From sequence record PX962436.1: a stretch of DNA of 48,115 bases; one strand, 5' to 3'. Source of the DNA: a phage. The translations under genes were made by a program, and so were the position numbers. Below are positions 1-42,940 of this stretch, one piece after another. The notes below the pieces were generated by a model. It saw only the letters and a list, made by a program, of their open reading frames with translations. It searched no databases and was not told the origin of the DNA. Position 1 is the stretch's first letter, and each line of letters opens with the position of its first letter.

Positions 1-430
1 GCACATCATCAGCGCGCAAGAGGGCAGACCGATAGAATCATTGGTAATGAGCGCCGGATTACGCGCGCTTGAACAACAGGCTGACTGGGTGTTAGTGGAA
101 GGTGCTGGCGGCTGGTTTACGCCGCTTTCTGACACTTTCACTTTTGCAGATTGGGTAACACAGGAACAACTGCCGGTGATACTGGTAGTTGGTGTGAAAC
201 TCGGCTGTATTAATCACGCGATGTTGACTGCGCAGGCAATACAACACGCCGGACTGACTCTGGCGGGTTGGGTGGCGAACGATGTTACGCCTCCGGGAAA
301 ACGTCACGCTGAATATATGACCACGCTCACCCGCATGATTCCCGCGCCGCTGCTGGGAGAGATCCCCTGGCTTGCAGAAAATCCAGAAAATGCGGCAACC
401 GGAAAGTACATAAACCTTGCCTTGTTGTAG
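1..430 (+). CDS. bioD: dethiobiotin synthetase, 3' portion (about 143 codons); the 5' portion lies at 47868..48115
   Basis: Frame-2 translation HIISAQEGRPIESLVMSAGLRALEQQADWVLVEGAGGWFTP...KYINLALL matches the BioD C-terminus; stop at 428-430. Confidence 0.9.
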   Translation, partial: HIISAQEGRPIESLVMSAGLRALEQQADWVLVEGAGGWFTPLSDTFTFADWVTQEQLPVILVVGVKLGCINHAMLTAQAIQHAGLTLAGWVANDVTPPGKRHAEYMTTLTRMIPAPLLGEIPWLAENPENAATGKYINLALL

Positions 431-914
431 CCATTCTGTATTTGGTTAAATTGCGAGCGAGATCGCGTCTTCGATTGACTGCAATTTAACCAATTAAATT
501 CTAAAATAATCACGAAAAAAATTTTACTTCCGCCTCATGCGGCGAATGTGGGAATTGCCCAGGCGGCGGGGGATAGGGGCTGGAGACAGTTATCCACTAT
601 TCCTGTGGATAACCATGTGTATTAGAGTTAGAAAACACGAGGCAAGCGAGAGAATACGCGGCTTGCACGCGAATTGGCGTTAAAGACGGCTCAAAGAAAT
701 ATCTTTTATTTTTTAACTGGTTAGATAAATGCAATGGCAGTCACTGAACAGGCATCTCTTGCCATAAAACTGTCATCACTCATCTTGACAAATGTTAAAA
801 AAGCCGTTGCTTTGGGGATAACCCGGTAAGGCCGGAGTTTTATCTCGCCACAGAGTAAATTTTGCTCATGATTGACAGCGGAGTTTACGCTGTATCAGAA
901 ATATTATGGTGATG

Positions 915-934
915 AACTGTTTTTTTATCCAGTA
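915..934. promoter_or_regulatory. LexA operator (SOS box) in the uvrB promoter region
   Basis: aaCTGTttttttatCCAGta fits the CTGT-N8-ACAG LexA pattern and overlaps a TATAAT -10 hexamer about 75 bp upstream of uvrB. Confidence 0.6.
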
Positions 935-1008
935 TAATTTGTTGGCATAATTAAGTACGACGAGTAAAATTACATACCTGCCCGCCCAACTCCTTCAGGT
1001 AGCGACTC

Positions 1009-3030
<2,022 letters not shown>

Positions 3031-3067
3031 CAGGATAGCGAAGAAGACTGATGACAAACGGAAAACA

Positions 3068-3165
3068 GCCTGATGCGCTACGCTTATCAGGCCTACATTT
3101 TCTCCGCAATATATTGAATTTGCGCGGTTTGTAGGCCGGATAAGGCGTTCACGCCGCATCCGGCA
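3068..3165. repeat. REP/BIME palindromic units downstream of uvrB
   Basis: GCCTGATGCGCTACGCTTATCAGGC and GTAGGCCGGATAAGGCGTTCACGCCGCATCCGGCA are typical REP stem sequences. Confidence 0.6.
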
Positions 3166-3221
3166 TAAACAACGCGCACTTTGTCTTCAATAGGAAGCCG
3201 GAATTTTCCTTCGGATTTCCG

Positions 3222-4190
<969 letters not shown>

Positions 4191-4384
4191 TTAACCTGCC
4201 AATATTGAGGATACAAACTATTTTCTTCTACCTCTAAAGGACGATGCACGCTATGCCTCCCTGATGATGTATATCAAAGTAAAACCGCCATTTTCCCTTA
4301 TTCTGTAGCGAAATAGCACGATCATGACGCTATATACATGATTACATAGCGAAAGTGTGGATGGTAAAAATCTCATTTACACGC

Positions 4385-4520
4385 TAGTATCGGCATAACC
4401 ACTAAACACTCTAGCCTCTGCACCTGGGTCAACTGATACGGTGCTTTGGCCGTGACAATGCTCGTAAAGATTGCCACCAGGGCGAAGGAAGAAATGACTT
4501 CGCCTCCCGTATCTGGAAAG
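4385..4520 (+). ncRNA. probable molybdenum-cofactor (Moco) riboswitch in the moaA leader
   Basis: Structured 5' leader directly upstream of moaA with conserved-looking GCCUCCC and GGAAAGG elements; boundaries approximate. Confidence 0.45.
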
Positions 4521-4526
4521 GTGTAC

Positions 4527-5516
4527 ATGGCTTCACAACTGACTGATGCATTTGCGCGTAAGTTTTACTACTTGCGCCTGTCGATTACCGATGTGTGTAA
4601 CTTTCGTTGCACCTACTGCCTGCCGGATGGGTACAAGCCGAGCGGCGTCACCAATAAAGGCTTTCTAACCGTCGATGAAATTCGCCGGGTTACGCGCGCC
4701 TTCGCCAGTCTGGGCACCGAAAAAGTGCGCCTGACAGGCGGTGAGCCGTCTTTACGCCGCGACTTTACCGATATCATCGCCGCTGTGCGAGAAAATGACG
4801 CTATCCGCCAGATTGCGGTCACCACCAATGGTTACCGTCTGGAACGCGATGTGGCGAACTGGCGCGATGCGGGACTTACTGGCATCAACGTCAGCGTTGA
4901 TAGTCTGGACGCCCGCCAGTTTCACGCTATTACCGGGCAGGATAAATTCAACCAGGTCATGGCAGGGATCGATGCTGCATTTGAGGCCGGTTTTGAGAAG
5001 GTCAAAGTCAATACCGTGCTGATGCGTGATGTGAATCATCATCAGCTCGACACTTTTCTGAACTGGATCCAGCATCGTCCCATCCAGCTGCGTTTCATCG
5101 AACTGATGGAAACGGGCGAGGGCAGCGAGCTCTTCCGTAAGCATCACATCTCTGGTCAGGTTCTGCGTGACGAGTTACTGCGTCGCGGCTGGATCCACCA
5201 ATTACGTCAACGCAGCGACGGCCCCGCGCAAGTCTTTTGTCATCCGGATTACGCCGGAGAGATTGGCCTTATCATGCCGTATGAAAAAGACTTCTGCGCC
5301 ACTTGCAACCGCCTGCGCGTTTCCTCCATTGGTAAACTCCATCTCTGCCTGTTTGGTGAAGGCGGCGTTAACCTGCGCGATCTGCTGGAAGACGATACCC
5401 AGCAACAGGCGCTGGAAGCGCGTATTTCAGCGGCGCTGCGGGAGAAGAAACAGACCCATTTCCTGCATCAAAACAACACCGGTATTACGCAAAACTTATC
5501 GTACATTGGCGGCTAA
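4527..5516 (+). CDS. moaA: GTP 3',8-cyclase MoaA (radical SAM, 329 aa)
   Basis: CNFRCTYC radical-SAM motif; start at MASQLTDAF (the ORF-track start at 4446 is an upstream extension). Confidence 0.9.
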
Positions 5517-5537
5517 AACGTCAAAAGGAGAGATCAG

Positions 5538-6050
5538 ATGAGTCAGGTAAGCACTGAATTTATCCCGACCCGTATTGCTATTCTTACGGTTTCTAATCGT
5601 TGCGGTGAAGAAGACGATACCTCCGGTCACTATCTGCGCGATTCGGCGCAAGAAGCGGGCCATCACGTTGTCGATAAAGCCATTGTGAAAGAAAACCGCT
5701 ACGCTATTCGCGCTCAGGTATCTGCGTGGATCGCCAGCGACGATGTACAAGTGGTGTTGATTACGGGGGGTACTGGCCTGACGGAAGGTGATCAGGCTCC
5801 CGAAGCACTGCTGCCGTTATTCGACCGTGAAGTTGAAGGTTTTGGTGAAGTGTTCCGGATGTTGTCGTTCGAAGAGATTGGCACTTCCACGTTGCAATCT
5901 CGAGCGGTAGCGGGCGTCGCTAACAAAACGCTGATTTTCGCCATGCCGGGTTCGACCAAAGCGTGCCGTACCGCATGGGAAAATATCATCGCGCCGCAGC
6001 TGGATGCCCGTACGCGTCCGTGTAATTTCCATCCACATTTGAAGAAATAA
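5538..6050 (+). CDS. moaB: molybdenum cofactor biosynthesis protein B
   Basis: 170 aa ORF, MogA/MoaB fold sequence, operon position. Confidence 0.9.
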
Positions 6051-6052
6051 GT

Positions 6053-6538
6053 ATGTCGCAACTGACCCATATCAACGCCGCTGGCGAAGCGCACATGGTG
6101 GATGTCTCCGCCAAAGCGGAAACCGTGCGTGAAGCGCGGGCGGAAGCCTTTGTCACCATGCGCAGCGAGACGCTGGCGATGATTATTGATGGTCGCCACC
6201 ACAAAGGCGACGTATTTGCCACTGCGCGTATTGCCGGTATTCAGGCGGCAAAACGCACCTGGGATCTGATCCCGCTGTGTCATCCGCTGATGCTCAGCAA
6301 AGTTGAAGTCAATTTACAGGCCGAGCCGGAGCACAATCGGGTGCGTATAGAAACCTTATGCCGCCTGACCGGGAAAACCGGTGTCGAAATGGAAGCGTTA
6401 ACCGCGGCCTCCGTGGCGGCGCTGACCATTTATGACATGTGCAAAGCGGTGCAAAAAGATATGGTGATTGGTCCGGTACGTTTGCTGGCGAAGAGCGGCG
6501 GCAAGTCAGGTGACTTTAAGGTGGAAGCGGATGATTAA
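6053..6538 (+). CDS. moaC: cyclic pyranopterin monophosphate synthase MoaC
   Basis: 161 aa ORF, operon position. Confidence 0.9.
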
Positions 6539-6776
6539 AGTTCTTTTTTTCGCCCAGGTGCGCGAGTTGGTGGGAACAGATGCAACCGAAGTGGCTGCGG
6601 ATTTCCCAACCGTTGAAGCGTTACGCCAACATCTGGCTGCGCAGAGCGATCGCTGGGCGCTGGCGCTGGAAGATGGCAAATTGCTGGCTGCCGTCAACCA
6701 GACGCTGGTGAGTTTTGACCATCCGCTGACTGACGGCGACGAAGTGGCTTTCTTCCCGCCGGTAACCGGAGGTTAA
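6531..6776 (+). CDS. moaD: molybdopterin synthase sulfur-carrier subunit MoaD (81 aa)
   Basis: Starts [12 protein letters not shown], ends with C-terminal GG; overlaps moaC end. Confidence 0.9.
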
Positions 6777-6777
6777 G

Positions 6778-7230
6778 ATGGCAGAAACCAAAATTGTTGT
6801 CGGCCCGCAGCCATTCAGCGTAGGAGAAGAGTATCCGTGGCTGGCGGAGCGTGATGAAGACGGTGCGGTAGTCACCTTTACCGGTAAGGTGCGCAACCAT
6901 AACCTTGGCGACAGCGTCAAAGCATTAACCCTCGAACACTATCCGGGGATGACTGAAAAAGCACTGGCAGAAATTGTCGATGAAGCGCGTAACCGCTGGC
7001 CGCTGGGGCGCGTCACGGTGATTCACCGCATCGGGGAATTATGGCCGGGCGATGAAATCGTTTTTGTCGGTGTCACCAGTGAGCACCGCAGCAGTGCGTT
7101 TGAAGCCGGGCAGTTTATTATGGATTATCTCAAAACCCGCGCACCGTTCTGGAAGCGCGAAGCCACGCCGGAAGGCGACCGCTGGGTTGAAGCTCGGGAG
7201 AGCGATCAGCAGGCGGCAAAACGCTGGTAG
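6778..7230 (+). CDS. moaE: molybdopterin synthase catalytic subunit MoaE
   Basis: 150 aa ORF, operon position. Confidence 0.9.
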   Translation: MAETKIVVGPQPFSVGEEYPWLAERDEDGAVVTFTGKVRNHNLGDSVKALTLEHYPGMTEKALAEIVDEARNRWPLGRVTVIHRIGELWPGDEIVFVGVTSEHRSSAFEAGQFIMDYLKTRAPFWKREATPEGDRWVEARESDQQAAKRW

Positions 7231-7240
7231 TTTTTTGTTA

Positions 7241-7267
7241 GCCGGATAAGGCACCGCTGCGTCCGGC
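7241..7267. repeat. REP element downstream of moaE
   Basis: GCCGGATAAGGCACCGCTGCGTCCGGC palindromic unit. Confidence 0.45.
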
Positions 7268-7365
7268 AATTTCACCGCTCAGTACATGCGTTTACGCTGC
7301 GTCGATGCACAGCCTCCTCATTTGCAGTATCCTTAAGATATTCCTTATATCTTCAGGAGATCGTC

Positions 7366-8070
7366 ATGGACAGATTCCCACGTTCTGATTCAATCGTACA
7401 ACCCCGGGCTGGCTTGCAAACTTATATGGCGCAAGTCTATGGCTGGATGACCGTTGGCTTGTTGCTGACCGCATTTGTTGCCTGGTATGCGGCTAATTCC
7501 GCGGCCGTGATGGAGCTGTTGTTCACTAACCGTGTCTTTTTAATCGGTCTGATCATCGCGCAATTAGCATTGGTTATTGTGTTATCAGCGATGATTCAAA
7601 AGCTGAGCGCAGGTGTAACGACGATGCTCTTTATGCTTTATTCGGCGCTGACGGGTCTTACGCTTTCCAGTATATTCATTGTCTATACCGCTGCTTCTAT
7701 CGCCAGTACTTTCGTCGTTACTGCCGGGATGTTCGGCGCAATGAGCCTGTACGGTTACACCACGAAGCGCGATTTAAGTGGCTTTGGCAATATGCTGTTT
7801 ATGGCGTTAATCGGCATTGTGCTGGCATCGCTGGTCAACTTCTGGCTGAAAAGCGAAGCGTTGATGTGGGCAGTCACCTACATCGGCGTGATTGTCTTTG
7901 TCGGATTGACGGCGTATGACACCCAGAAACTGAAAAATATGGGTGAGCAGATAGATACCCGCGACACGTCGAACCTGCGCAAATATTCCATTCTTGGCGC
8001 GTTAACCTTGTATCTGGACTTCATCAACCTGTTCCTGATGTTGCTGCGGATCTTCGGCAACCGCCGTTAA
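7366..8070 (+). CDS. ybhL: Bax-inhibitor-1 family inner membrane protein
   Basis: 234 aa polytopic membrane ORF at the K-12 ybhL position. Confidence 0.85.
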   Translation: MDRFPRSDSIVQPRAGLQTYMAQVYGWMTVGLLLTAFVAWYAANSAAVMELLFTNRVFLIGLIIAQLALVIVLSAMIQKLSAGVTTMLFMLYSALTGLTLSSIFIVYTAASIASTFVVTAGMFGAMSLYGYTTKRDLSGFGNMLFMALIGIVLASLVNFWLKSEALMWAVTYIGVIVFVGLTAYDTQKLKNMGEQIDTRDTSNLRKYSILGALTLYLDFINLFLMLLRIFGNRR

Positions 8071-8274
8071 TTCTTTTTCACCATCACTATCCCGGCCATG
8101 TGTCGGGATTTTTTTCTTACTAAAAACGACACTTAACAAGTACCAGGTATAAAATACGCCTTATGGCCGAGCGGAAGTGTTTTCCGTATCCATAAATACA
8201 AAAGTATTTTGTATGCGTGGTTTTAAATTTATTGATGGTGAATATTAATATTTTTTCTAAGGACAACTAAAAGA

Positions 8275-8988
8275 ATGGAATCATACTCGAAAAACAGCAA
8301 TAAATTAGATTTTCAGCACGAGGCCAGGATATTAAACGGTATATGGCTCATTACCGCTTTAGGTTTGGTGGCAACCGCAGGACTGGCCTGGGGAGCTAAG
8401 TATCTCGAAATTACGGCAACCAAATATGATTCACTACCAATGTATGTCGCCATAGGGTTATTATTACTTTGTATGTATGGCTTAAGTAAGGATATCAACA
8501 AGATAAATGCCGCCATCGCAGGCGTAATATATCTGTTTTTACTCTCTTTGGTGGCGATTGTCGTTGCAAGTTTAGTTCCTGTATATGCCATTATCATCGT
8601 GTTTAGCACTGCGGGCGCGATGTTTTTAATCAGTATGCTGGCCGGTTTATTATTTAATGTTGATCCTGGTTCTCACCGTTTTATCATTATGATGACGTTG
8701 ACAGGGTTGGCCCTGGTAATCATCGTGAATGCGGCATTAATGAGTGAACGGCCCATTTGGGTAATAAGTTGCTTAATGATTGTGTTATGGTCAGGCATTA
8801 TCTCGCATGGACGAAATAAGCTCCTTGAACTGGCGGGAAAATGCCATAGTGAAGAGTTATGGAGTCCGGTTCGTTGCGCTTTTATAGGCGCATTAACACT
8901 CTATTACTATTTTATCGGCTTCTTTGGGATACTTGCAGCAATAGCGATAACGCTTGTCTGGCAAAGGCATACGCGGTTTTTTCATTAG
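8275..8988 (+). CDS. ybhM: BI-1-like inner membrane protein
   Basis: 237 aa polytopic membrane ORF at the K-12 ybhM position. Confidence 0.8.
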   Translation: MESYSKNSNKLDFQHEARILNGIWLITALGLVATAGLAWGAKYLEITATKYDSLPMYVAIGLLLLCMYGLSKDINKINAAIAGVIYLFLLSLVAIVVASLVPVYAIIIVFSTAGAMFLISMLAGLLFNVDPGSHRFIIMMTLTGLALVIIVNAALMSERPIWVISCLMIVLWSGIISHGRNKLLELAGKCHSEELWSPVRCAFIGALTLYYYFIGFFGILAAIAITLVWQRHTRFFH

Positions 8989-9023
8989 TCGTAAATGCAC
9001 ATACTAAAGAACTTAACTAAACT

Positions 9024-9980
9024 TCACATCGCCGCTTCATTTTTCGCCCGTAGCTTCTTCGCCTGGCTTTCCAGCAACAGGTAACAGATCAGCGCCAGCA
9101 GCAGTGGGATAAAGTAATACAGCACACGGTAAGCGAGTAGGGCGGCGATAATGCTCCCTTTGGATGTATGCTCCCCAGCCAGTAGCGCGATAAACACCGC
9201 TTCCAGCACACCAATCCCCGCCGGAATATGCACGATGACGCCAGCAATACTACTAACCAGCAACACGCCCAGTACAAAGAAATAGTTCACGCTTTGACCG
9301 AGTAACAGCCAGATTATCGCTCCCATTACCATCCAGTTAACGCTGGAAATCAGCATCTGAGCGAGGGCGAATTTCCATGAAGGCAGCACCAGTTTTTGCC
9401 CTTTGATGGTCATATGGCGGTGCTTCGCGAAAGCGCAAAACCACAAATAAACCGCGATAATCGTCAGTAAGCCAATGCCGAGAATACGCAGCGTAGTTTG
9501 ATCGACATACCAGTGATCCGGCAACTCCACCACGCCTGCGGTAAAGATAATCCCTGCCAGTAAAATATAGCCCAGCCAGTTGGTGGTAATACTGAGCGAG
9601 AAAATCCGCGTAATAGTGCTGCCCGGTAACCCTAGTCGGGAGTACAAACGATAGCGCATACCAATGCCGCCGACCCAGGTACTGAGCGTCAGGTTGAAGG
9701 CGTAGCAGATAAACGACACCAGCATCACCTGGCGCTTCGCCAGTTTGTGACCGCAGTAAAAGCGGGCGAGCAGGTCATAGCAGCCGTAAATCAGATAGCT
9801 GACGACCACCAGCCCGACCGCACTAAGCAGCGCAACGCGATTGTAGTCGCGGATGACCTTCCAGACCTCTTCCCAGTCCACTTTTTTGGCGTAGACCACC
9901 AGCAACACAATCACCGCGATAAACAACAGCCAGGTGAGGATCTTCTTTGCTAAGCGCCAGCGCGGGTGTGATTTACTCAT
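9024..9980 (-). CDS. ybhN: UPF0104 inner membrane protein
   Basis: 318 aa membrane ORF, last gene of the ybhP-clsB-ybhN operon. Confidence 0.85.
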   Translation of the reverse strand: MSKSHPRWRLAKKILTWLLFIAVIVLLVVYAKKVDWEEVWKVIRDYNRVALLSAVGLVVVSYLIYGCYDLLARFYCGHKLAKRQVMLVSFICYAFNLTLSTWVGGIGMRYRLYSRLGLPGSTITRIFSLSITTNWLGYILLAGIIFTAGVVELPDHWYVDQTTLRILGIGLLTIIAVYLWFCAFAKHRHMTIKGQKLVLPSWKFALAQMLISSVNWMVMGAIIWLLLGQSVNYFFVLGVLLVSSIAGVIVHIPAGIGVLEAVFIALLAGEHTSKGSIIAALLAYRVLYYFIPLLLALICYLLLESQAKKLRAKNEAAM

Positions 9981-11221
9981 CAGGGTTTTACCCCCGTGTT
10001 TTCAGTTTCTACCCGATCCTGAGTTTCCATTGTCGGTTGTGCGGGCGGATCAACCTGCGCCAGACGTGGCGTGTGTGCCGGAAGCCAGCCAACCAGCGCC
10101 GGGAAGTGGCGTAAAAAGTGGAACGCCAGCACGCTTTTGGTCAGGTTCCACCAGGTGCGTTTGGGCAGCATGGTTTCATCCACCTGCTGACAATCTGCGG
10201 CGATAATGCCGTTCAGATTATCGCGCAGCGTCTGGTTAAAATTACGATCGTGGATGAAGACATTTGCTTCGAGATTCAGTGACAAACTGAGCGGATCGAG
10301 ATTACTGGACCCTACTGTCGCCCAGTGATCGTCCATCAATGCTACTTTGCCGTGGAGCGGGCGGCGGCGGTACTCAAACACCTGAACGCCGCCTTTAACC
10401 AGATAGTTATACAGCAAGCGCGCGCCGACTCTGACAATCGGCATATCCGGTTCGCCCTGAATGATCAGTTTGATCCGCACCCCGCGGCGTGCCGCTTTAC
10501 GCAAGGCGTGTAAAAATCGATAGCCGGGGAAGAAGTAGGCGTTGGCGATAATGACTTCCCGCCGCGCCTGAGTGAGCATTTTCAGATAGTGGCGTTCTAT
10601 ATCATCGCGGTGTTCTTCGTTATCGCGCCAGACCAGCAATACCTGCGCTTCTCCCGGCTGGCGATTTTCTTCCGCTTTGTGATGACGTCGCCACCAGCGT
10701 CGTGCCGCGCTCTGTCCAGGCAGGTTTTCCAGCTCAAACTGGAGAATATCTTCGACAATCGGCCCTTCAAGGCGTACCGCGTAATCCTGTTTAGCCTCTG
10801 GACCGTAGCTGGACATATGCTCGGCGGAGTAATTCAGCCCGCCAATAAAGGCGATACGCGCGTCGATCACCACAATTTTGCGATGCATCCGGCGAAACAC
10901 ATTGGTGCGCATACCAAAAAGGCGAGGGCGGGGATCGTAGTAGCGAAATACCACGCCAGCTGCCGTCAGTTCATTGACAAACTCATCGCTGAGATCCGGC
11001 GAACCGTAGCCATCCAGCAAGACTTCCGCTTTAACCCCGCGTTGCGCTGCTGCCAGTAGTGCCGCATGCAGCTGTTTGCCGACGTCATCCTCAAACCAGA
11101 TAAACGTTTCAAGAATGATGCGTTCTTGTGCCTCGCCAATCGCCTTAAACACCGCGGGATAATATTGCTCGCCGTTTTCCAGCAACTCGATCTTATTGCC
11201 TTCACGCCAGCTACATTTCAT
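9980..11221 (-). CDS. clsB: cardiolipin synthase B (phospholipase D family)
   Basis: 413 aa ORF with two HxK(x4)D motifs ([17 protein letters not shown]). Confidence 0.9.
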
Positions 11222-11979
11222 AAATGAATCTCCGCACTTAAAGGGGCATGATCAGAAAGGTGTCGCCATGTCTGCAGCGGCAACGCGGTTGGCGCGCTGG
11301 CGCTGGCATTTTTGACGTAGATCCTGTCCAGACGTAGTAGAGGAAATTGCACCGGAAACGTGCGCGCCGGGCGTCCGTGGGCGCGGGTAAATATCTCATC
11401 CAGTCCGGCCTGCACTTTTAACGGATGATTAGCTTTTTGCCGCCAGTCATTGAAATCACCCGCCACCAATACCGGTTCGCCGTCCGGTAGCTCATTCACC
11501 CATTCGGCGAGCATCGCAAGCTGCGCCTGACGGTGCGCCTCACGCAGGCCCAGATGTACGCACATCACATGAATCGCTTTTCCGGTCATCGGCGGCACAA
11601 TGCGGCAGTAGAGCACGCCGCGCTTTTCCGCACCATCGACCGAAACATCGCGATTCTCATAATGTTCAATGGGATAACGTGAAAGAACCGCGTTACCGTG
11701 ATGCCCTTCCGGGTATACGGCATTGCGACCGTAGGCAAAATCGCTCCACATGGTGTCGGCGAGAAACTCGTAGTGCGAGGTATCGGGCCAGTTTTCCACA
11801 TGCAGCGGATGAACTTCGTGCGCGCCCATCACTTCCTGCAGGCAAACAATATCGGCGCTGACGGTACGCACGGCATCGCGAAGTTCCGGCAAAATGAAGC
11901 GTCGGTTAAACGCGGTAAAGCCTTTGTGAATGTTGATGGTGAGCACCTTGAACGAAAATTGTTGTGTTTGATCGGGCAT
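11218..11979 (-). CDS. ybhP: endonuclease/exonuclease/phosphatase family protein
   Basis: 253 aa ORF, EEP-fold sequence, operon position. Confidence 0.85.
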
Positions 11980-12111
11980 AATTTTCCTGTCTTTGCCTCT
12001 TATCTCATTGAAATAGTGTAGTCGGCGTCACAAAAAGGTGCGGTCTTACGGAATTTTCCGTAAAGTTCGGTACTCTGAGTAAGTAGAGATAAATTCTTCA
12101 GGAGAGAAGCC

Positions 12112-12522
12112 ATGAAGTGGCAACAACGTGTTCGTGTCGCAACGGGTCTAAGTTGCTGGCAGATTATGTTGCATTTACTGGTAGTGGCGCTGCTGGTGGT
12201 GGGCTGGATGAGTAAGACTCTGGTTCACGTCGGCGTGGGATTATGCGCACTGTATTGTGTCACGGTAGTGATGATGCTGGTGTTTCAGCGCCACCCCGAG
12301 CAACGCTGGCGTGAGGTGGCAGACGTGCTGGAAGAGCTGACCACGACCTGGTATTTTGGCGCAGCGCTGATTGTGCTGTGGCTGTTGTCCCGCGTTCTGG
12401 AAAACAACTTTTTGCTGGCAATTGCAGGGCTGGCAATCCTTGCCGGCCCGGCGGTAGTGTCTTTGCTGGCGAAAGATAAGAAGTTACATCACCTTACGTC
12501 TAAACATCGCGTACGCCGCTGA
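12112..12522 (+). CDS. ybhQ: inner membrane protein
   Basis: 136 aa hydrophobic ORF at the K-12 ybhQ position. Confidence 0.8.
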
Positions 12523-13590
12523 CCCTGTCGTGGCCGTTATCACCAGTAGCGGCCACAAACTATTCCACACAATATCCAGACTCGCATCCTTCAAATAAAT
12601 CTGCTTGGTAATGTCCGTAAAGTGGCGAATAGGGTTAATCCACGTCAGGTTTTGCAGCCAAACTGGCATGTTTTCCACCGGCGAAACGTAACCGGAAAGG
12701 AGAATGGCGGGCATCATAAAGACAAACACGCCGATAAACGCCTGCTGTTGTGTCGAGCAGAGTGATGAAATCAACAGACCGAATCCCACCAGCGATAAAC
12801 CGTAAATCACCATCGTAAAGTAGAACAGCGCCAGCGATCCGGCGAAGGGGATTTGATACGCCCAGATACCAATCGCCAGCACAATGGTGGCCTGGAAGGT
12901 GGCGACAATTAACGCCGGTACGGCTTTGCCGATGAAGATCTGCCAGGTGGTGAGCGGCGAAACCAGTAGCTGATCGAGCGTACCTTGTTCACGTTCGCGG
13001 GCGACGGAAAGTGAAGTGACGATCATTACGCCGATAGTGGTGATCATGGCGATCAGCGACGGCACCACAAACCATTTGTAGTCGAGATTCGGGTTATACC
13101 AGTTGCGTACTACCAGCTCGCTGTTGTTAGGTTTCGGTTTTCCTTCCAGCAGCTCCTGCTGATAATTTTTGACGATCTGTTGCAGGTAGTTGGCGGCAAT
13201 TTGCGCACTGTTGGAGTTACGCCCGTCGAGGATCAACTGCAACGGCGCGGTCTGGAAGGTATCCAGTTTGCGCGAGAAGTCAGCCGGGAAACGCACCAGG
13301 AGTAACGCCTTTTGTGTGTCGATGGTCGGGCGGATCTCCTGTGGGCTTTTCAGCAGCAGCACATGTGTAAAGGCGCTGGCGCGGGCAAAACGTTGAGTAA
13401 GTTCCACCGAATGCTCGCCGTTATCTTCATCGTAGATGGCGATGGTGGCGTTAGTCACTTCCAGCGTGGCGGCGAACGGGAACAGGATCACCTGAATTAG
13501 CACGGGTAAAATCAGAATCGCGCGGGTTTGTGGTTCGCGCAGCAACGACTGCAACTCTTTGCGGATTAACGTCCATAAGCGATGAAACAT
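12484..13590 (-). CDS. ybhR: ABC-2 type transporter permease
   Basis: 368 aa polytopic ORF, ybhFSR operon. Confidence 0.85.
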
Positions 13591-13600
13591 GCTCTTCTCC

Positions 13601-14734
13601 CTAATCCAGCCGACGTTTGGTTTTCAGCCACGTCAGGCCGATAAACATCACCGCCGAAGCGATCAAAAACAGCACGTTTACCACCAGCACCACTGGAATA
13701 TTCCCGGCGAGGAACAGGCTTTGCAGGGTGCTGACGAAATAACGAGCGGGAATAATGTACGTCACCGCGCGGATCACCGCGGGCATACTGTCGATCTGAA
13801 AAATAAAGCCGGAAAGCATAATCGACGGCAGAAAAGCCGCGTTCAGAGCGACCTGAGCGGCATTGAACTGGTTGCGGGTTATCGTGGAAATCAGCAGCCC
13901 CATCCCCAGGGTACTGAGTAAAAACAGGCTGGAGATAAAAAACAGAATCAGCAGCGACCCGCGATACGGCACGCCGAGAATAAACACTGACACCAGCATA
14001 CACAGCAACATCGCCAGCATCCCGAGAAAGTAATAAGGGATCAGCTTACACAGCAGCAGTTCCGTGCGGGTAATCTCCGTAGAGAGCAGAGCCTCCATGG
14101 TGCCGCGTTCCCATTCTCGCGCCACCACCAGCGAGGTGAGAATCGCGCCGATGACCGTCATGATGATGGTCACCGCACCCGGGATAATAAAGTGCTGGCT
14201 TATCGCCGCCGGGTTAAACCAGTAGCGGGTTTGTACATCAATAAGCGGTTCAAAAGTCTGCCCGTTGTCCTCCGCTCGCTGCATTTGCCAGATCTGCCAG
14301 ATCCCTTCGACATACCCCTGCACAAAGTTAGCGGTATTCGGCTCACTGCCGTCGGTGATCACCTGAATCGGTGCGGTGGCGTTGGCGCGCTCCATCTGTT
14401 CCGCAAAATCCACCGGAATAACCACCAGACCGCGAATTTTCCCCGCCTGCATTTTGGCGATCAGTTCCTGACGGTTATCGCTGATGGTGGCGTCGATGTA
14501 GGGCGAACCGGTCATGGTGTGGGTGAAATCCAGCGCCGCTTCGCTACGCTGTTCCAGTAAAATCCCGACCCGCAGCTTGCTGGAGTCGAGGTTAATGCCG
14601 TAACCAAAAATAAACAGCAGTAGCAGCGGGATCACTACCGCAATCAGCCAGCTACTCGGATCGCGAACGATCTGCCGCGTCTCTTTAACGCACAGCGCCC
14701 GTACGCGACGCCAGGACAGGATCGGGTTACTCAT
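13601..14734 (-). CDS. ybhS: ABC-2 type transporter permease
   Basis: 377 aa polytopic ORF, ybhFSR operon. Confidence 0.85.
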
Positions 14735-15725
14735 TGCTATGCTCCTTATCCCAGTCGTGGATCAACTGAATAAAGGCTTGCTCCATGGTGGGATCGGGTT
14801 GCTCGTCGTTGGCCGACTGCGCTTTCAAATCATCCGGCGTGCCGCTGGCAATTAATTTCCCACGGTACACCAGGCCGATGCGGTCGCAATATTCTGCTTC
14901 ATCCATAAAGTGAGTGGTGACCATCACCGTGACGCCTTTCTCTACCATGCTGTTGATATGCAGCCAAAATTCGCGGCGGGTGAGGGGATCAACGCCGGAC
15001 GTTGGTTCGTCGAGAAACAGAATGTCCGGTTCATGCATCAGCGAACAGGCCAGCGCCAGCCGCTGTTTAAAACCTAATGGCAGTTCATCGGTCGCGTGGG
15101 AGGCGATACTTTTCAGGCCAAATGCCTCGCTCATACGGGAGATTTTTTCGTTCTGCGCCCGACCGCGTAAGCCATACACACCAGAGAAAAAGCGTAAATT
15201 CTGTTCGACCGTCAGGTTGCCGTAGAGCGAAAATTTTTGCGCCATATAGCCGAGATGCTGGCGCGCTTTACCGGAACTCTCTTTCAGATCCATCCCCAGC
15301 ACCAGCGCCTGGCCGGAAGTCGGCACCAGCAAACCGCACATCATCTTAAAGGTGGTCGATTTACCCGCGCCGTTTGGCCCCAGCAAACCAAAAATCTCCC
15401 CACGTTTAACGGCAAAGTTGACGTGATCGGTGGCGGCAAAATCACCAAATTTCTTGGTCAGTTCTTTCGCTTCGATCACCGTCTCGCCGGGTGTGCCTTC
15501 TACCGTATGCAATATTGCACCCAGCGGCGATTCTGAGGTTCCGGCACCACCCAGCAAATCAATAAACGCATCTTCAAAACGCGGCGTAGTTTCGTTGATG
15601 TTGATTTCCGGCATCCCGTCGGCATGGCGAATATCGTCTGGTGTGGCCTCTTTTTTGAGGATCAGACGTACCGATTTCCCCTGAATCATGCCGTCGCTGA
15701 CCTGCGGCAGTTTCAAGGCGCGGTG
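14727..15725 (-). pseudogene. ybhF: 5'-truncated ABC transporter ATPase: only the second ABC domain and linker remain; the 5' limit is approximate
   Basis: Minus-strand translation has one complete ABC domain (Walker A GPNGAGKST, signature, Walker B) preceded by the C-terminal tail of a first domain (FEDAFIDLLGG); the rest of the 523-codon ORF (15730..16298) is antisense to the methylase. Confidence 0.75.
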
Positions 15726-15729
15726 AAAC

Positions 15730-16655
15730 CCAACGGTTGGGACAATCAGTGGAAAGGGGACGAAGATTACCTGAAGTGGCTGGACCACTGTCTGGCTCAG
15801 TTCTGGCGGGTGCTGAAACCTGCCGGAAGCCTTTACCTGTTCTGTGGACATCGCCTCGCATCTGATATCGAGATCATGATGCGTGAACGTTTCAACGTTC
15901 TTAACCATATTATCTGGGCGAAGCCGTCCGGACGATGGAACGGGTGTAATAAAGAAAGTCTGCGCGCATATTTTCCCGCAACAGAACGCGTTCTGTTTGC
16001 TGAACATTACCAGGGACCATATCGCGGCAAAAGTGACGGCTATGCGGCAAAAGAAAGTCAACTCAAACAGCACATAATGGCACCGCTGATTTCGTATTTC
16101 AGGGATGCTCGTGCCGAACTGGGTATAACGGCAAAACAGATTGCCGAAGCCACTGGTAAGAAAAATATGGTTTCCCACTGGTTTGGTGCCAGTCAGTGGC
16201 AGTTGCCGAATGAGGCTGACTACCGGAAGTTGCAGGCACTGTTTTCCCGTATAGCGGCAGAGAAATTTCAGGAACAACAACTGGAACAACCACACCACCA
16301 GCTGGTGGCATCTTATGATTCACTGAATCGCAAATATTCTGAATTGCTGGATGAGTTTAAAACTCTCCGGCGCTATTTCTCCGTATCAGTTTCCGTGCCT
16401 TATACCGACGTCTGGACGCATAAACCCGTTCAGTTCTACCCGGGTAAACATCCGTGTGAGAAGCCCGCGGATATGCTCCGGCAAATAATCAGTGCCAGTA
16501 GTCGACAAGGCGATCTGGTTGCTGATTTCTTTATGGGATCCGGTTCCACAATAAAAGCGGCAATGGCGCTGGGGCGTCGGGCGTTAGGTGTTGAACTTGA
16601 GTCAGAGCGGTTTAATCAGACGGTGAAAGAGGTAAGTGAACTGGTGGGGAAATAA
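15730..16655 (+). pseudogene. phage N6-adenine/N4-cytosine DNA methyltransferase, 5'-truncated at the host-phage junction
   Basis: C-terminal FxGxG motif (DFFMGSGST) and W-rich region (GWDNQWKGDEDYLKWL) are present, but the DPPY catalytic motif expected just upstream is replaced by ybhF antisense sequence. Confidence 0.6.
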
Positions 16656-16731
16656 TTCTGGTGGCCACGTTGCGTGGCCTTTTTATTTCCAACACAGCAC
16701 CCGCAAATATCGCGAGGTGAGAGATGACGAA

Positions 16732-17067
16732 ATGCCTCATAACCCAAATACCTGGCCGGACTGGCTGGAGTTGTTTCAGAGCTGGTGGCGTGGAGATACG
16801 CCGCTGGGCGCAGTGATTATGTCGATTGTTATGGCTGGTTTGCGCATCGCCTATTTTGGCGGTGGTGGTGGCTGGAAGCGAAAAACGCTCGAGATTTTGC
16901 TATGTGGCGCTCTGACGTTGACCTTTGCATCCGCGCTTGAGTATGTCGGATGGCCTAAATCGCTTTCTGTTGCCATTGGTGGTGGGGTGGGGCTGATCGG
17001 TGTCGATGCTATTCGTGGGGCTGCAATGAGAGTAATCGGTAACAAGTTTGGTAGCTCGAAGGAGTAA
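16732..17067 (+). CDS. phage holin (not lambda S), about 112 aa with three predicted transmembrane segments
   Basis: Sits immediately upstream of the endolysin; hydrophobic segments and a GGGGG loop; GAGGTGA SD-like sequence before ATG 16732; the ORF-track start at 16636 overlaps the methylase end. Confidence 0.6.
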   Translation: MPHNPNTWPDWLELFQSWWRGDTPLGAVIMSIVMAGLRIAYFGGGGGWKRKTLEILLCGALTLTFASALEYVGWPKSLSVAIGGGVGLIGVDAIRGAAMRVIGNKFGSSKE

Positions 17068-17070
17068 TTT

Positions 17071-17547
17071 ATGCAGGTACTAAATTCCCAGCGTAAAGCT
17101 TTCCTGGATATGGTTGCATGGTCAGAAGGAACTGATAACGGACGTCAGAAAACCAGAAATCATGGTTATGACGTCATTGTAGGCGGAGAGCTATTCACTG
17201 ATTACTCCGATCACCCTCGCAAACTTGTCACGCTAAACCCAAAACTCAAATCAACAGGCGCCGGACGCTACCAGCTTCTTTCCCGTTGGTGGGATGCCTA
17301 CCGCAAGCAGCTTGGCCTGAAAGACTTCTCTCCGAAAAGTCAGGACGCTGTGGCATTGCAGCAGATTAAGGAGCGTGGCGCTTTACCTATGATTGATCGT
17401 GGTGATATCCGTCAGGCAATCGACCGTTGCAGCAATATCTGGGCTTCACTGCCGGGCGCTGGTTATGGTCAGTTCGAGCATAAGGCTGACAGCCTGATTG
17501 CAAAATTCAAAGAAGCGGGCGGAACGGTCAGAGAGATTGATGTATGA
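17071..17547 (+). CDS. R: endolysin (lambda R-type lytic transglycosylase); the first ~15 codons are non-lambda, the remainder matches lambda R
   Basis: Translation matches lambda R from QRKAFLDM to the end, but the N-terminus reads MQVLNS (lambda: MVEINN) and residue 15 is V (lambda: L). Confidence 0.9.
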
Positions 17548-18005
17548 GCAGAGTCACCGCGATTATCTCCGCTCTGGTTATCTGCATCATCGTCTGCCTG
17601 TCATGGGCTGTTAATCATTACCGTGATAACGCCATTACCTACAAAGCCCAGCGCGACAAAAATGCCAGAGAACTGAAGCTGGCGAACGCGGCAATTACTG
17701 ACATGCAGATGCGTCAGCGTGATGTTGCTGCGCTCGATGCAAAATACACGAAGGAGTTAGCTGATGCTAAAGCTGAAAATGATGCTCTGCGTGATGATGT
17801 TGCCGCTGGTCGTCGTCGGTTGCACATCAAAGCAGTCTGTCAGTCAGTGCGTGAAGCCACCACCGCCTCCGGCGTGGATAATGCAGCCTCCCCCCGACTG
17901 GCAGACACCGCTGAACGGGATTATTTCACCCTCAGAGAGAGGCTGATCACTATGCAAAAACAACTGGAAGGAACCCAGAAGTATATTAATGAGCAGTGCA
18001 GATAG
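17544..18005 (+). CDS. Rz: spanin inner-membrane subunit Rz
   Basis: 153 aa ORF at lambda 45966..46427 by map offset. Confidence 0.9.
17764..17946 (+). CDS. Rz1: spanin outer-membrane lipoprotein Rz1, nested in Rz in the +1 frame
   Basis: 60 aa ORF with lipobox (VVVGC) and proline-rich region, embedded in Rz. Confidence 0.85.
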
Positions 18006-18036: not shown

Positions 18037-18330
18037 TTATTTTGAGCAATACACACGCGCTTCCAGCGGAGTATAAATGCCTAAAGTAATAAAACCGAGC
18101 AATCCATTTACGAATGTTTGCTGGGTTTCTGTTTTAACAACATTTTCTGCGCCGCCACAAATTTTAGCTGCATCGACAGTTTTCTTCTGCCCAATTCCAG
18201 AAACGAAGAAATGATGGGTGATGGTTTCCTTTGGTGCTACTGCTGCCGGTTTGTTTTGAACAGTAAACGTCTGTTGAGCACATCCTGTAATAAGCAGGGC
18301 CAGCGCAGTAGCGAGTAGCATTTTTTTCAT
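18037..18330 (-). CDS. bor: Bor lipoprotein (serum-resistance-type lysogenic conversion protein)
   Basis: 97 aa, lipobox LITGC; matches lambda Bor. Confidence 0.9.
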   Translation of the reverse strand: MKKMLLATALALLITGCAQQTFTVQNKPAAVAPKETITHHFFVSGIGQKKTVDAAKICGGAENVVKTETQQTFVNGLLGFITLGIYTPLEARVYCSK

Positions 18331-20039: not shown

Positions 20040-20260
20040 TATCACTTTACGGGTCCTTTCCGGTGATCCGACAGGTTACGGGGCGGCGACCTCGCGGGTT
20101 TTCGCTATTTATGAAAATTTTCCGGTTTAAGGCGTTTCCGTTCTTCTTCGTCATAACTTAATGTTTTTATTTAAAATACCCTCTGAAAAGAAAGGAAACG
20201 ACAGGTGCTGAAAGCGAGCTTTTTGGCCTCTGTCGTTTCCTTTCTCTGTTTTTGTCCGTG
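20040..20260 (+). other. lambda cos (cosQ-cosN-cosB) in the ligated/circular form; cosN 12-nt overhang GGGCGGCGACCT at 20081..20092
   Basis: Lambda right-end sequence ...CCGACAGGTTACG runs directly into the left-end sequence GGGCGGCGACCTCGCGGGTTTTCGCTATTTATGAAAATTTTCCGG. Confidence 0.9.
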
Positions 20261-42925: not shown

Positions 42926-42940
42926 GCTTTTTTATACTAA
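42926..42940. other. attR core (phage P-arm / bacterial B'-arm junction), common core GCTTTTTTATACTAA
   Basis: 15-bp att core flanked on the left by lambda P-arm and on the right by chromosomal TTGAGCGAAACG leading to ybhB. Confidence 0.85.

Follow-up and report, generated by a model that had tools for sequence, protein, structure and literature searches.

The window, meaning the whole stretch of 48,115 bp under analysis (phage record PX962436.1), contains the 3' part of the host gene ybhF, a truncated DNA methyltransferase gene, a terminator-like hairpin, the holin gene S, the endolysin gene R, and the spanin genes Rz and Rz1, in this order (Table 1). As the initial annotation proposed, the lysis cassette is mosaic and combines an S allele foreign to lambda, and equally foreign opening codons of R, with the remainder of lambda R. 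The donor bases reach to 17127 and the lambda/DE3 bases begin at 17133, and the right border of the foreign DNA, formerly set at 17115, therefore lies at 17128-17132. High nucleotide identity to lambda over 15,730-17,115 had been named as the observation that would speak against a mosaic. There is no meaningful identity to lambda or DE3 in 15722-17127, and the mosaic therefore stands.

Table 1. Positions of genes, joints, and sites in the 48,115-bp window.
Feature	Positions	Strand	Remarks
ybhF, 3' part (host ABC-transporter ATPase)	14727-15722	-	Cut at the novel joint; N-terminal half missing
Illegitimate joint of ybhF and donor methyltransferase gene	15722-15723		Overlap of 1 nt (G); three-way comparison of the window, BL21(DE3), and E. 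coli H7
5'-truncated beta-class N6A/N4C DNA methyltransferase gene	15723-16655	+	Codons 41-350 and stop
Intrinsic-terminator-like hairpin between methyltransferase gene and S	16663-16688	+	Terminator scan and fold
Holin S, SfV type, 111 aa	16732-17067	+	Lambda-family class I (predicted); start per SfV annotation and PGAP
Chimeric endolysin R, 158 aa	17071-17547	+	Codons 1-19 of donor (SfV/H7) type, remainder lambda/DE3
Homologous-recombination crossover interval GGAAC within R	17128-17132		Last base differing from BL21(DE3), 17127; first base differing from H7, 17133
Rz (i-spanin)	17544-18005	+	ORF list; DE3 annotation, same coordinates
Rz1 (o-spanin), embedded in Rz	17764-17946	+	DE3
bor lipoprotein gene, DE3/lambda	18037-18330	-	ORF list; DE3/BL21(DE3) annotation
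cosN, sole cos in the circle	20081-20092	+	Single exact match; same coordinates annotated in DE3
att core (attR), sole att core in the circle	42926-42940	+	Single exact match; BL21(DE3) annotation

The non-lambda stretch (15722-17132, 1,411 nt) is identical at 1,411/1,411 nt to SfV-like prophage DNA of E. coli 14EC001, H7, and E89, and has 95.3% identity to the orf48-S-R region of phage SfV (SfV 34281-35759). The donor, which the initial annotation had left without a name, can be identified and is the late-region module of SfV-like prophages. The order of this module is Q, terminator, orf47, methyltransferase, terminator, S, and R in the SfV annotation, and quuD, porin, orf, methyltransferase, S, and R in 14EC001. 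The native order running from Q to methyltransferase, terminator, S, and R is also present in E. coli 2017.15.02CC, and SfV shares the methyltransferase-S-R arrangement with 269 of 5,426 E. coli genomes. The window resembles the SfV module (NC_003444.1, 34162-36106) in having the same gene order, the same terminator, and an identical holin protein. In contrast, it lacks Q, pR', orf47, and the first 40 methyltransferase codons, and its R from codon 20 on is that of lambda/DE3 and not the SfV-type R-Rz. A resident cryptic prophage of E. coli B was also considered as the source of the patch and was rejected, because the complete E. coli genomes matching the patch at 98.4% or more are non-B strains. 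The parts of the mosaic are already known, and the mosaic itself is real.

The small membrane-protein gene lies directly before R, as first described, with its stop codon at 17065-17067 and the R ATG at 17071. The position 16636, at which the initial annotation began, marks no more than the GTG start of the longest possible ORF, which overlaps the methyltransferase stop (16655) and crosses the terminator hairpin at 16663-16688; the annotated gene begins with the ATG at 16732 and encodes 111 aa instead of the 112 aa first given. This protein is identical to SfV S at 111/111 aa and occurs on at least 1,000 contigs, where it is labelled 'phage holin, lambda family'. The claim that it is unrelated to lambda S is refuted. 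The holin shares 25% of its residues with lambda S over 79 aa (E = 3e-6) in an alignment that covers all three transmembrane domains (TMDs), and both proteins match PF05106 and TIGR01594 over their full length. The window holin scores 125.9 bits against the TIGR01594 equivalog (cut-off 55.05), with residues 1-109 on profile positions 2-106 of 107, and 95.6 bits against PF05106 (cut-off 23.8). It is thus, as far as sequence can tell, a genuine class I holin of the lambda family.

Lambda S (S105/S107), the prototype class I holin, belongs to the same curated family and has 107 aa compared with 111 aa in the window. Both proteins have three hydrophobic segments in like order, a short glycine-containing loop between TMD1 and TMD2, a basic C-terminal tail, and a gene directly upstream of R. 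The three hydrophobic segments noted initially appear as three Kyte-Doolittle peaks, with centres at about residues 28-39, 58-67, and 82-96, and these align with the peaks of lambda S. The three-TMD statement is based on hydropathy and on this alignment, and the putative topology, N-out/C-in in this family, on hydropathy only. The GGGGG loop is likewise present, with its five consecutive glycines (G43-G47) placed between the first and second peaks, and the tail RVIGNKFGSSKE has a net basic character. On the contrary, the N-terminus of the window holin is longer than that of lambda S and acidic (MPHNPNTWPDWLELFQSWWRGD), and S and R are separated by a 3-nt spacer, whereas the lambda genes overlap by 17 nt. 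The dual-start motif is a feature of lambda-type regulation, and a holin can belong to the family without it. The Met-Lys-Met motif is absent from the window holin, whose N-terminus reads MPHNPN... and whose next in-frame Met is codon 30, inside TMD1; there is therefore no obvious S107-type antiholin. The holins of SfI, SfII, SfIV, and SfV are also devoid of the dual-start motif (PMC3851460).

The endolysin departs from lambda R in its first codons, about 15 of which had been described as different. Residues 2, 3, 4, 6, and 15 differ, and the two proteins are identical from residue 16. Overall, the chimeric R is 97% identical to DE3/lambda R, matches the 1AM7 lambda lysozyme with E = 7.8e-104, and has an invariant S18-E19-G20. 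It is predicted to be a lambda-type lytic transglycosylase in which E19, the catalytic residue of lambda R, is kept; no Pfam or NCBIfam model matched it. The crossover within R is in frame and at homologous positions, beside perfect-identity stretches of 50 and 44 nt. The exact 158-aa chimera is absent from a collection of 15 billion proteins and from the assembly index. One IMG/VR contig matched the 39-mer of the R crossover and was rejected as the same recombinant, because it carries an unrelated R allele that is 92% identical over 399 nt only. Rz and Rz1 are DE3 copies without any mismatch to BL21(DE3). The lysis cassette is an ordinary one of the standard holin-endolysin-spanin kind, since its SfV-type holin is very common and has been joined to lambda/DE3 R by homologous recombination.

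The methyltransferase fragment matches PF01555 with E = 8.9e-36 over profile positions 20-220 of 221. The full-length H7 methyltransferase reads ...IVTDPPYFKVKPNGW..., and the window copy starts at VKPNGW. The catalytic motif IV (DPPY), at residues 35-38 in the H7 protein of 350 aa, falls within the missing codons 1-40, and the AdoMet-binding motif I, FxGxG, is kept (DFFMGSGST). Of these two motifs, which together define membership in PF01555, the window copy has only the latter, and it is predicted to be a dead fragment and a non-functional member of the family. The first 40 codons are missing because the gene is joined illegitimately to host ybhF. The initial annotation considered a methyltransferase to be an unusual neighbour of a lysis cassette, and this could not be upheld. 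Such a gene is usual in SfV, in 14EC001, and in this module as a whole, and is the regular neighbour of the SfV-type holin, in the Q-to-S 'moron' slot. The unusual point is not the presence of the methyltransferase gene but that it is cut at codon 41 and fused to ybhF.

The lambdoid Q-to-S 'moron' slot contains the stx genes in Stx phages and an IS1/low-GC insert in SfIV. The accessory genes that lie there, after Q/pR' and ahead of S, have their own terminator and are transcribed by Q-modified polymerase (PMC3851460; SfV annotation). When compared to an intact slot, the window keeps only the 3' 310 moron codons and nothing that drives transcription. The hairpin behind them consists of GGCCACG-TTG-CGTGGCC followed by TTTTTATTT, and its SfV counterpart is annotated as a putative rho-independent terminator. 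In cdtI, mEp460, Ayreon, PhiR40_1, and PhiR55_1, the methyltransferase and terminator unit is present beside other holins, and similarity to the window ends at 16719. The methyltransferase-terminator unit forms a module that can be separated from the S-R unit.

The left joint lies in ybhF, which is annotated at 811237-812973 in BL21(DE3), and the identity of the window to BL21 stops at 15722. Both parents contain a TTCAAGG heptamer near this joint, 4 nt out of register. Recombination at the common heptamer was rejected as the origin of the joint, because the product retains the extra CGCG of ybhF and the joint is 4 nt off that homology. A 35-mer spanning the joint is absent from IMG/VR, GTDB genomes, and JGI metagenomes. 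Similarly, none of the phage and plasmid records searched by megablast spans the ybhF/methyltransferase joint, none of the complete E. coli genomes carries it, and the 343-aa fusion ORF has no exact record in the assembly index or the protein collection. Neither the patch nor the ybhF joint was found in complete BL21-type RefSeq genomes.

Outside the patch, the window is one continuous BL21(DE3) segment of 46.7 kb (765523-812231) with a single SNP; exact DE3 comparisons were made against the BL21(DE3) chromosome. Positions 1-15721 have 100% identity with NC_012971.2 796511-812231, and the bioD reading frame continues from the end of the window into its start, which gives a closed circle of 48,115 bp. 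In the circle, the DE3 part extends from R to attR and is followed by about 21 kb of host DNA (ybhB-bio-uvrB-moa-ybhF') and finally by the patch; the genes after attR are ybhB, bioA, bioBFC, and bioD. Its length is 99% of that of lambda (48.5 kb; 48,507-bp record). The numbering of window positions 17071-42925 coincides exactly with that of the DE3 GenBank record, and the first 17 kb is different DNA. DE3 coordinates 1-17127 (int region, N, cI, O, P, Q, pR', and S) are wholly missing. The observation that Q and the late promoter are missing upstream of the cassette holds for the entire window, in which int, cI, O, P, Q, and pR' are all absent. A literature search for DE3-derived transducing or hybrid phages, or for the PhiR phage series, found nothing relevant. 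Neither joint is present in any collection searched, and the origin of the circle is uncertain.

The window looks like a defective lambda-bio-type transducing genome, or like a constructed sequence. Lambda bio phages result from aberrant excision, by illegitimate recombination between the prophage and DNA to the right of attR. The likeness to this system includes a contiguous right arm of the prophage followed by attR and bio-side host DNA. It also includes one novel phage/host joint almost without homology, one cos, and a packageable size. The window has the prophage arm with contiguous host DNA, the hybrid att, and the single illegitimate joint of a lambda bio genome, and one cos per unit at a length within packaging limits. 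In contrast, it lacks the replication and late-control genes that plaque-forming lambda pbio retains. The substitution takes out attL through Q and pR', including ori, O, and P, and the phage side of the joint is foreign SfV-type DNA instead of lambda. With ori, O, P, Q, and pR' removed, the molecule is therefore unable to replicate or to express late genes, and at best it could only be of the helper-dependent defective type. DE3 itself cannot excise normally because the T7 RNA polymerase insert interrupts int.

The cassette would probably work if it were transcribed, because holins and endolysins are interchangeable and this S already occurs together with lambda-like R alleles in natural prophages. 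S would build up in the inner membrane and, at a programmed time, form holes there. R, a cytoplasmic transglycosylase, would then pass through the S holes and cut the murein, and Rz/Rz1 would disrupt the outer membrane last. In this molecule the cassette is probably silent, because the patch starts inside the methyltransferase gene, no plus-strand promoter-like site was found in 15300-16732, and S is separated from the joint by a terminator.

The comparisons establish the identity and family of every part, the positions of both joints, and the absence of Q and pR' from the window. The patch is very probably a late-operon leader and lysis piece of an SfV-like lambdoid prophage that has been joined to DE3 R and to host ybhF. 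The simplest natural origin would start with a single homologous crossover of an SfV-like genome with DE3 inside R. The methyltransferase gene would next be linked to ybhF, 46.7 kb away, by one illegitimate event, and the product would be selected through lambda cos-to-cos packaging. The outcome would be a defective, ori-less transducing genome of the lambda bio type. A circle without ori forms no concatemers alone, and packaging would therefore need a tandem or in-situ arrangement. We propose only tentatively that the 48.1-kb unit was formed naturally and packaged by lambda terminase, as a transducing element of capsid size that lacks ori and derives from DE3, a prophage supposed to be immobile. 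If the circle was genuinely packaged, it would represent recombination between laboratory DE3 and a wild SfV-like phage, with export of host genes from BL21(DE3). The standard protein-expression strain could then export chromosomal DNA in lambda capsids after meeting wild lambdoid phages, which would be of modest interest for biosafety and strain stability.

It is unlikely, but worth weighing, that the joints are non-biological and come from an assembly chimera, or from a built or rotated sequence of BL21(DE3) and other E. coli DNA. Both joints are unique across all collections searched, the patch is 100% identical to sequenced genomes, and the exact register with the DE3 GenBank record suggests human or software handling. 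However, the same register is expected if a circular contig was merely rotated to the nearest reference. The parents have only 1 nt and 5 nt in common at the two joints, and stretches as short as these would not suffice for a k-mer or overlap mis-join. Moreover, the R crossover falls in frame at homologous positions next to the 50- and 44-nt stretches of perfect identity, and a closed 48,115-bp circle with one cos and 99% of the lambda length is what packaging selection would give.

A chromosomal tandem duplication of 48,115 bp could also be imagined, with no free or packaged circle, if an SfV-like phage had recombined with the DE3 of some BL21(DE3) derivative; the repeated unit would run from R through attR-bio-uvrB to ybhF' and on into 'methyltransferase-S-R. 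Such a duplication would likewise produce the novel joint and make the end of the window seem to continue into its start, and would provide two tandem cos sites. We regard it as improbable, since only by coincidence would the window be exactly as long as the duplication unit, and since no complete RefSeq BL21-type genome has the patch or the joint.

Next to no credit can be given to a new kind of lysis module, with a holin unrelated to lambda S, an unidentified donor, and an atypical methyltransferase neighbour: even though the holin is only 25% identical to lambda S and its N-terminus and five-glycine loop are unlike those of lambda S, it matches the curated lambda-holin models over its full length, is 100% identical to SfV S, carries the lambda-family label on at least 1,000 contigs, and follows the methyltransferase gene in SfV and in the 269 E. 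coli genomes mentioned above. The lysis cassette is one more lambdoid lysis-module mosaic, which combines an already described SfV holin allele with the R of lambda. It shows that a pairwise identity of 25% can mask clear family membership, and its seemingly odd neighbour turned out to be a deletion joint.

The mosaic described by the initial annotation, in which a non-lambda holin and the start of R are joined to lambda R, is real: the sequence is of donor type up to 17127 and of lambda/DE3 type from 17133, DE3 being the lambda-type prophage of E. coli BL21(DE3). The foreign patch (15722-17132, 1,411 nt) comprises a methyltransferase fragment, a terminator, the holin gene S, and the start of R. 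Its donor, previously left unnamed, is now known to be an SfV-like prophage module. Among 5,426 complete E. coli genomes, strains 14EC001, H7, and E89 carry a copy with 100% identity, in agreement with a base-by-base comparison, and the patch occurs at ≥99% identity in 19 records and with at least 80% coverage in 269 genomes. Among phage records, megablast aligned window 15722-17200 with Shigella phage SfV 34281-35759 (orf48 methyltransferase, S, and the start of R) at 95.3% identity, and Escherichia phages vB_EcoM-720R4 and mEp460_4F5 share 94.6-94.7% identity with the patch region. The components of the mosaic are known ones, brought together by ordinary mechanisms. Overall, the initial annotation is confirmed in part as an observation and supported in part as an interpretation.

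Features of the lysis region and of the enclosing molecule (window coordinates)
Feature	Position	Strand	Remarks
ORF across left joint	14727-16298	-	523 aa; crosses ybhF/methyltransferase joint
ORF across left joint	15624-16655	+	343 aa; crosses ybhF/methyltransferase joint
Maximal ORF with holin	16636-17067	+	GTG start overlapping last codons of upstream gene
R	17071-17547		Residues 2, 3, 4, 6, and 15 unlike lambda/DE3 R; no difference from residue 16 onward
cosN	20081-20092		Only cosN in window
J	35585-38983		Same position in DE3 record
att core (attR)	42926-42940		Only att core in window

The methyltransferase had been considered an unusual neighbour for a lysis cassette, and it proves to be standard in the donor. 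In 14EC001 the module sits within an SfV-like prophage with the order ninE-ybcO-rusA-quuD(Q), porin, orf, methyltransferase, S, R, Rz, and iss; beyond these come HNH, a P27-type terminase, an HK97-type head, and a contractile tail. In SfV the order is Q, terminator, orf47, methyltransferase, terminator, S, R, and Rz/Rz1. The methyltransferase is thus a normal neighbour of the SfV-type holin in the Q-to-S slot, which is where lambdoid phages hold 'morons' (PMC3851460). In phages cdtI, mEp460, Ayreon, PhiR40_1, and PhiR55_1, the match takes in the methyltransferase and terminator but does not extend past window position 16719, just ahead of S, so that methyltransferase plus terminator and S-R are separately exchangeable modules. 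The 14EC001 prophage is seemingly complete. Within 2944-9444 of the H7 locus (NZ_CP010171.1), the identical methyltransferase-S-R-Rz-iss module lies in a remnant with an IS1 copy on each side, and its neighbours are an ompC-like porin gene and the CP4-6 genes yagK-yagM.

The physical features of the holin were correctly described by the initial annotation, except that its start lies at 16732 rather than 16636 and its length (111 aa) was off by one residue. The maximal ORF spans a hairpin and T run, GGCCACG-TTG-CGTGGCC TTTTTATTT, at 16663-16688 (terminator scan, fold), and ATG 16732 is the sole in-frame ATG ahead of the hydrophobic core. Both the SfV annotation and PGAP, in its calls on identical genes, choose the same start. 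The product has an acidic N-terminus, three hydropathy peaks (centres ~28-39, 58-67, and 82-96), a loop of five consecutive glycines (G43-G47) past the first peak, and a basic C-terminal tail; 3 nt separate the stop codon (17065-17067) from the R ATG. The terminator scan also flagged a second stem-loop (CTGGCCGGACTGGCTGG) at 16752-16768, 20 nt within the coding region, which might influence translation initiation, standing in for the sdi structure of lambda.

Contrary to the initial annotation, this holin is related to lambda S. Both proteins match PF05106 (Phage_holin_3_1, 'Lysis protein S'; cut-off 23.8 bits) across the whole profile, with 95.6 bits for the window holin and 105.3 bits for DE3/lambda S, and the window holin scores 125.9 bits against the NCBI equivalog model TIGR01594 'phage holin, lambda family' (cut-off 55). 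Direct BLASTP gives 25% identity to lambda S over 79 residues (E = 3e-6), spanning all three hydrophobic segments and placing the GGGGG loop opposite the N-G-G loop of lambda. The protein is identical to protein S of SfV (111/111), and at least 1,000 contigs, from E. coli, Salmonella, and their relatives, carry exactly this sequence, named there 'phage holin, lambda family'. In contrast to lambda S, it does not have the Met-Lys-Met dual start; the SfIV genome paper reports the same lack for the SfI, SfII, SfIV, and SfV holins and describes the control of their lysis timing as unknown (PMC3851460).

At the left joint, identity to the BL21(DE3) chromosome stops at 15722 and donor identity starts at 15722/15723. 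On the host side the break falls in the middle of ybhF, a minus-strand gene; on the donor side it follows codon 40 of the methyltransferase gene. The intact protein has the sequence ...IVTDPPYFKVKPNGW..., while the window copy begins at VKPNGW and has therefore lost the catalytic DPPY motif and retained FxGxG, with a PF01555 match from profile position 20. At the joint the parents have one base (G) in common, and although both contain a TTCAAGG heptamer, the two copies are offset by 4 nt; hence the joint is illegitimate, and this joint with host DNA accounts for the truncation. The two ORFs across it were rejected as genes, being read-through fusion artefacts, and the 343-aa product has no record in any collection searched.

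The right joint differs in kind. The last base unlike BL21(DE3) is 17127 and the first unlike H7 is 17133, which confines the exchange to the five bases GGAAC at 17128-17132. It is in frame, at homologous positions, with stretches of 11, 50, and 44 nt identical in both parents directly to its right, the pattern expected from homologous recombination with heteroduplex resolution. Residues S18-E19-G20 persist in the chimeric R, which aligns with the lambda lysozyme structure 1AM7 at E = 7.8e-104. Neither a collection of ~15 billion proteins nor the assembly index contains this exact protein, so the exchange looks recent and particular to this molecule. Downstream of R, the Rz, Rz1, and bor genes are the same as in DE3. 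An R allele in IMGVR_UViG_2636415418_000001 (9407-9883) is 92% identical to the window R and has the same crossover-spanning 39-mer; by this comparison, R alleles of lambdoid phages are themselves fine-scale mosaics.

By homology, S would build up in the inner membrane and open holes at a set time, cytoplasmic R would pass through them to cleave murein, and Rz/Rz1 would then finish envelope disruption. Natural prophages already combine SfV-type S with near-lambda R alleles, and the chimera should therefore be functional if transcribed. In the native SfV-like context, Q-modified polymerase from pR' would transcribe the cassette past the terminators flanking the methyltransferase moron. Q and the late promoter are indeed missing upstream, as the initial annotation had implied: nothing of DE3 1-17127 (lacI, T7 RNA polymerase, xis, red, N, cI, O, P, Q, pR', lambda S) is in the window. 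A scan of the plus strand from 15300 to S gave no sigma-70-like site, and the terminator at 16663 stands between the left joint region and S. The cassette is most likely a silent, promoterless passenger here.

Window 1-15721 is 100% identical to BL21(DE3) NC_012971.2 796511-812231 (bioD', uvrB, ybhK, moaABCDE, ybhL-ybhS, ybhF'), and the DE3 late genes are present from R to the b region. When rotated (17128-48115, then 1-15721), the window aligns gaplessly to BL21(DE3) 765523-812231. Since its ends (48115 and 1) meet inside bioD with the reading frame unbroken, it is a closed 48,115-bp circle or exactly one tandem-repeat unit. In form it is a lambda-bio-type substitution, with the prophage right arm, attR, bio-side host DNA, one illegitimate joint, and lambda size; so much is replaced that the molecule would be unable to replicate or to transcribe its late genes.

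The simplest origin has three steps, the first two read from the joints. Through a single homologous exchange within R, involving an SfV-like genome and integrated DE3, donor ...Q-methyltransferase-S-R' would come to lie just upstream of DE3 'R-Rz-cos-A...J-attR-bio...ybhF. The methyltransferase gene and ybhF, separated by 46.7 kb, would then recombine illegitimately and yield the 48.1-kb unit as a circle or tandem repeat. Finally, and by conjecture, cos-to-cos packaging would select a unit of such size. A chromosomal tandem duplication is an alternative. Another is a non-biological sequence, including deliberate construction: the coordinates of window 17071-42925 are exactly those of the DE3 GenBank record (NC_042057/EU078592), with R, cos, and J in shared register, and window 1-17127 is unrelated to DE3 1-17127 yet of the same total length, a possible hint of handling. 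Put another way, on the BL21(DE3) genome the first window base is at DE3 start + 48,115. If the molecule is a circle, however, the register probably reflects rotation against the DE3 reference. A k-mer mis-assembly is unlikely, as the joints offer just 1 and 5 nt of sequence common to the parents. No collection searched contains either joint. The three-step route remains the likeliest, and the BL21(DE3)-derived circle around the cassette is a curiosity whose provenance deserves a check. The sole difference from NC_012971.2 across the 46.7 kb, a SNP at 3667 (A vs T) in minus-strand ybhK, could tag a particular B-strain derivative. Two ordinary host features were also detected by Rfam: a molybdenum-cofactor riboswitch upstream of moaA (4395-4539, plus strand; 103.6 bits) and the ES036/CssrF sRNA just downstream of uvrB (3089-3130, minus strand; 43.4 bits).
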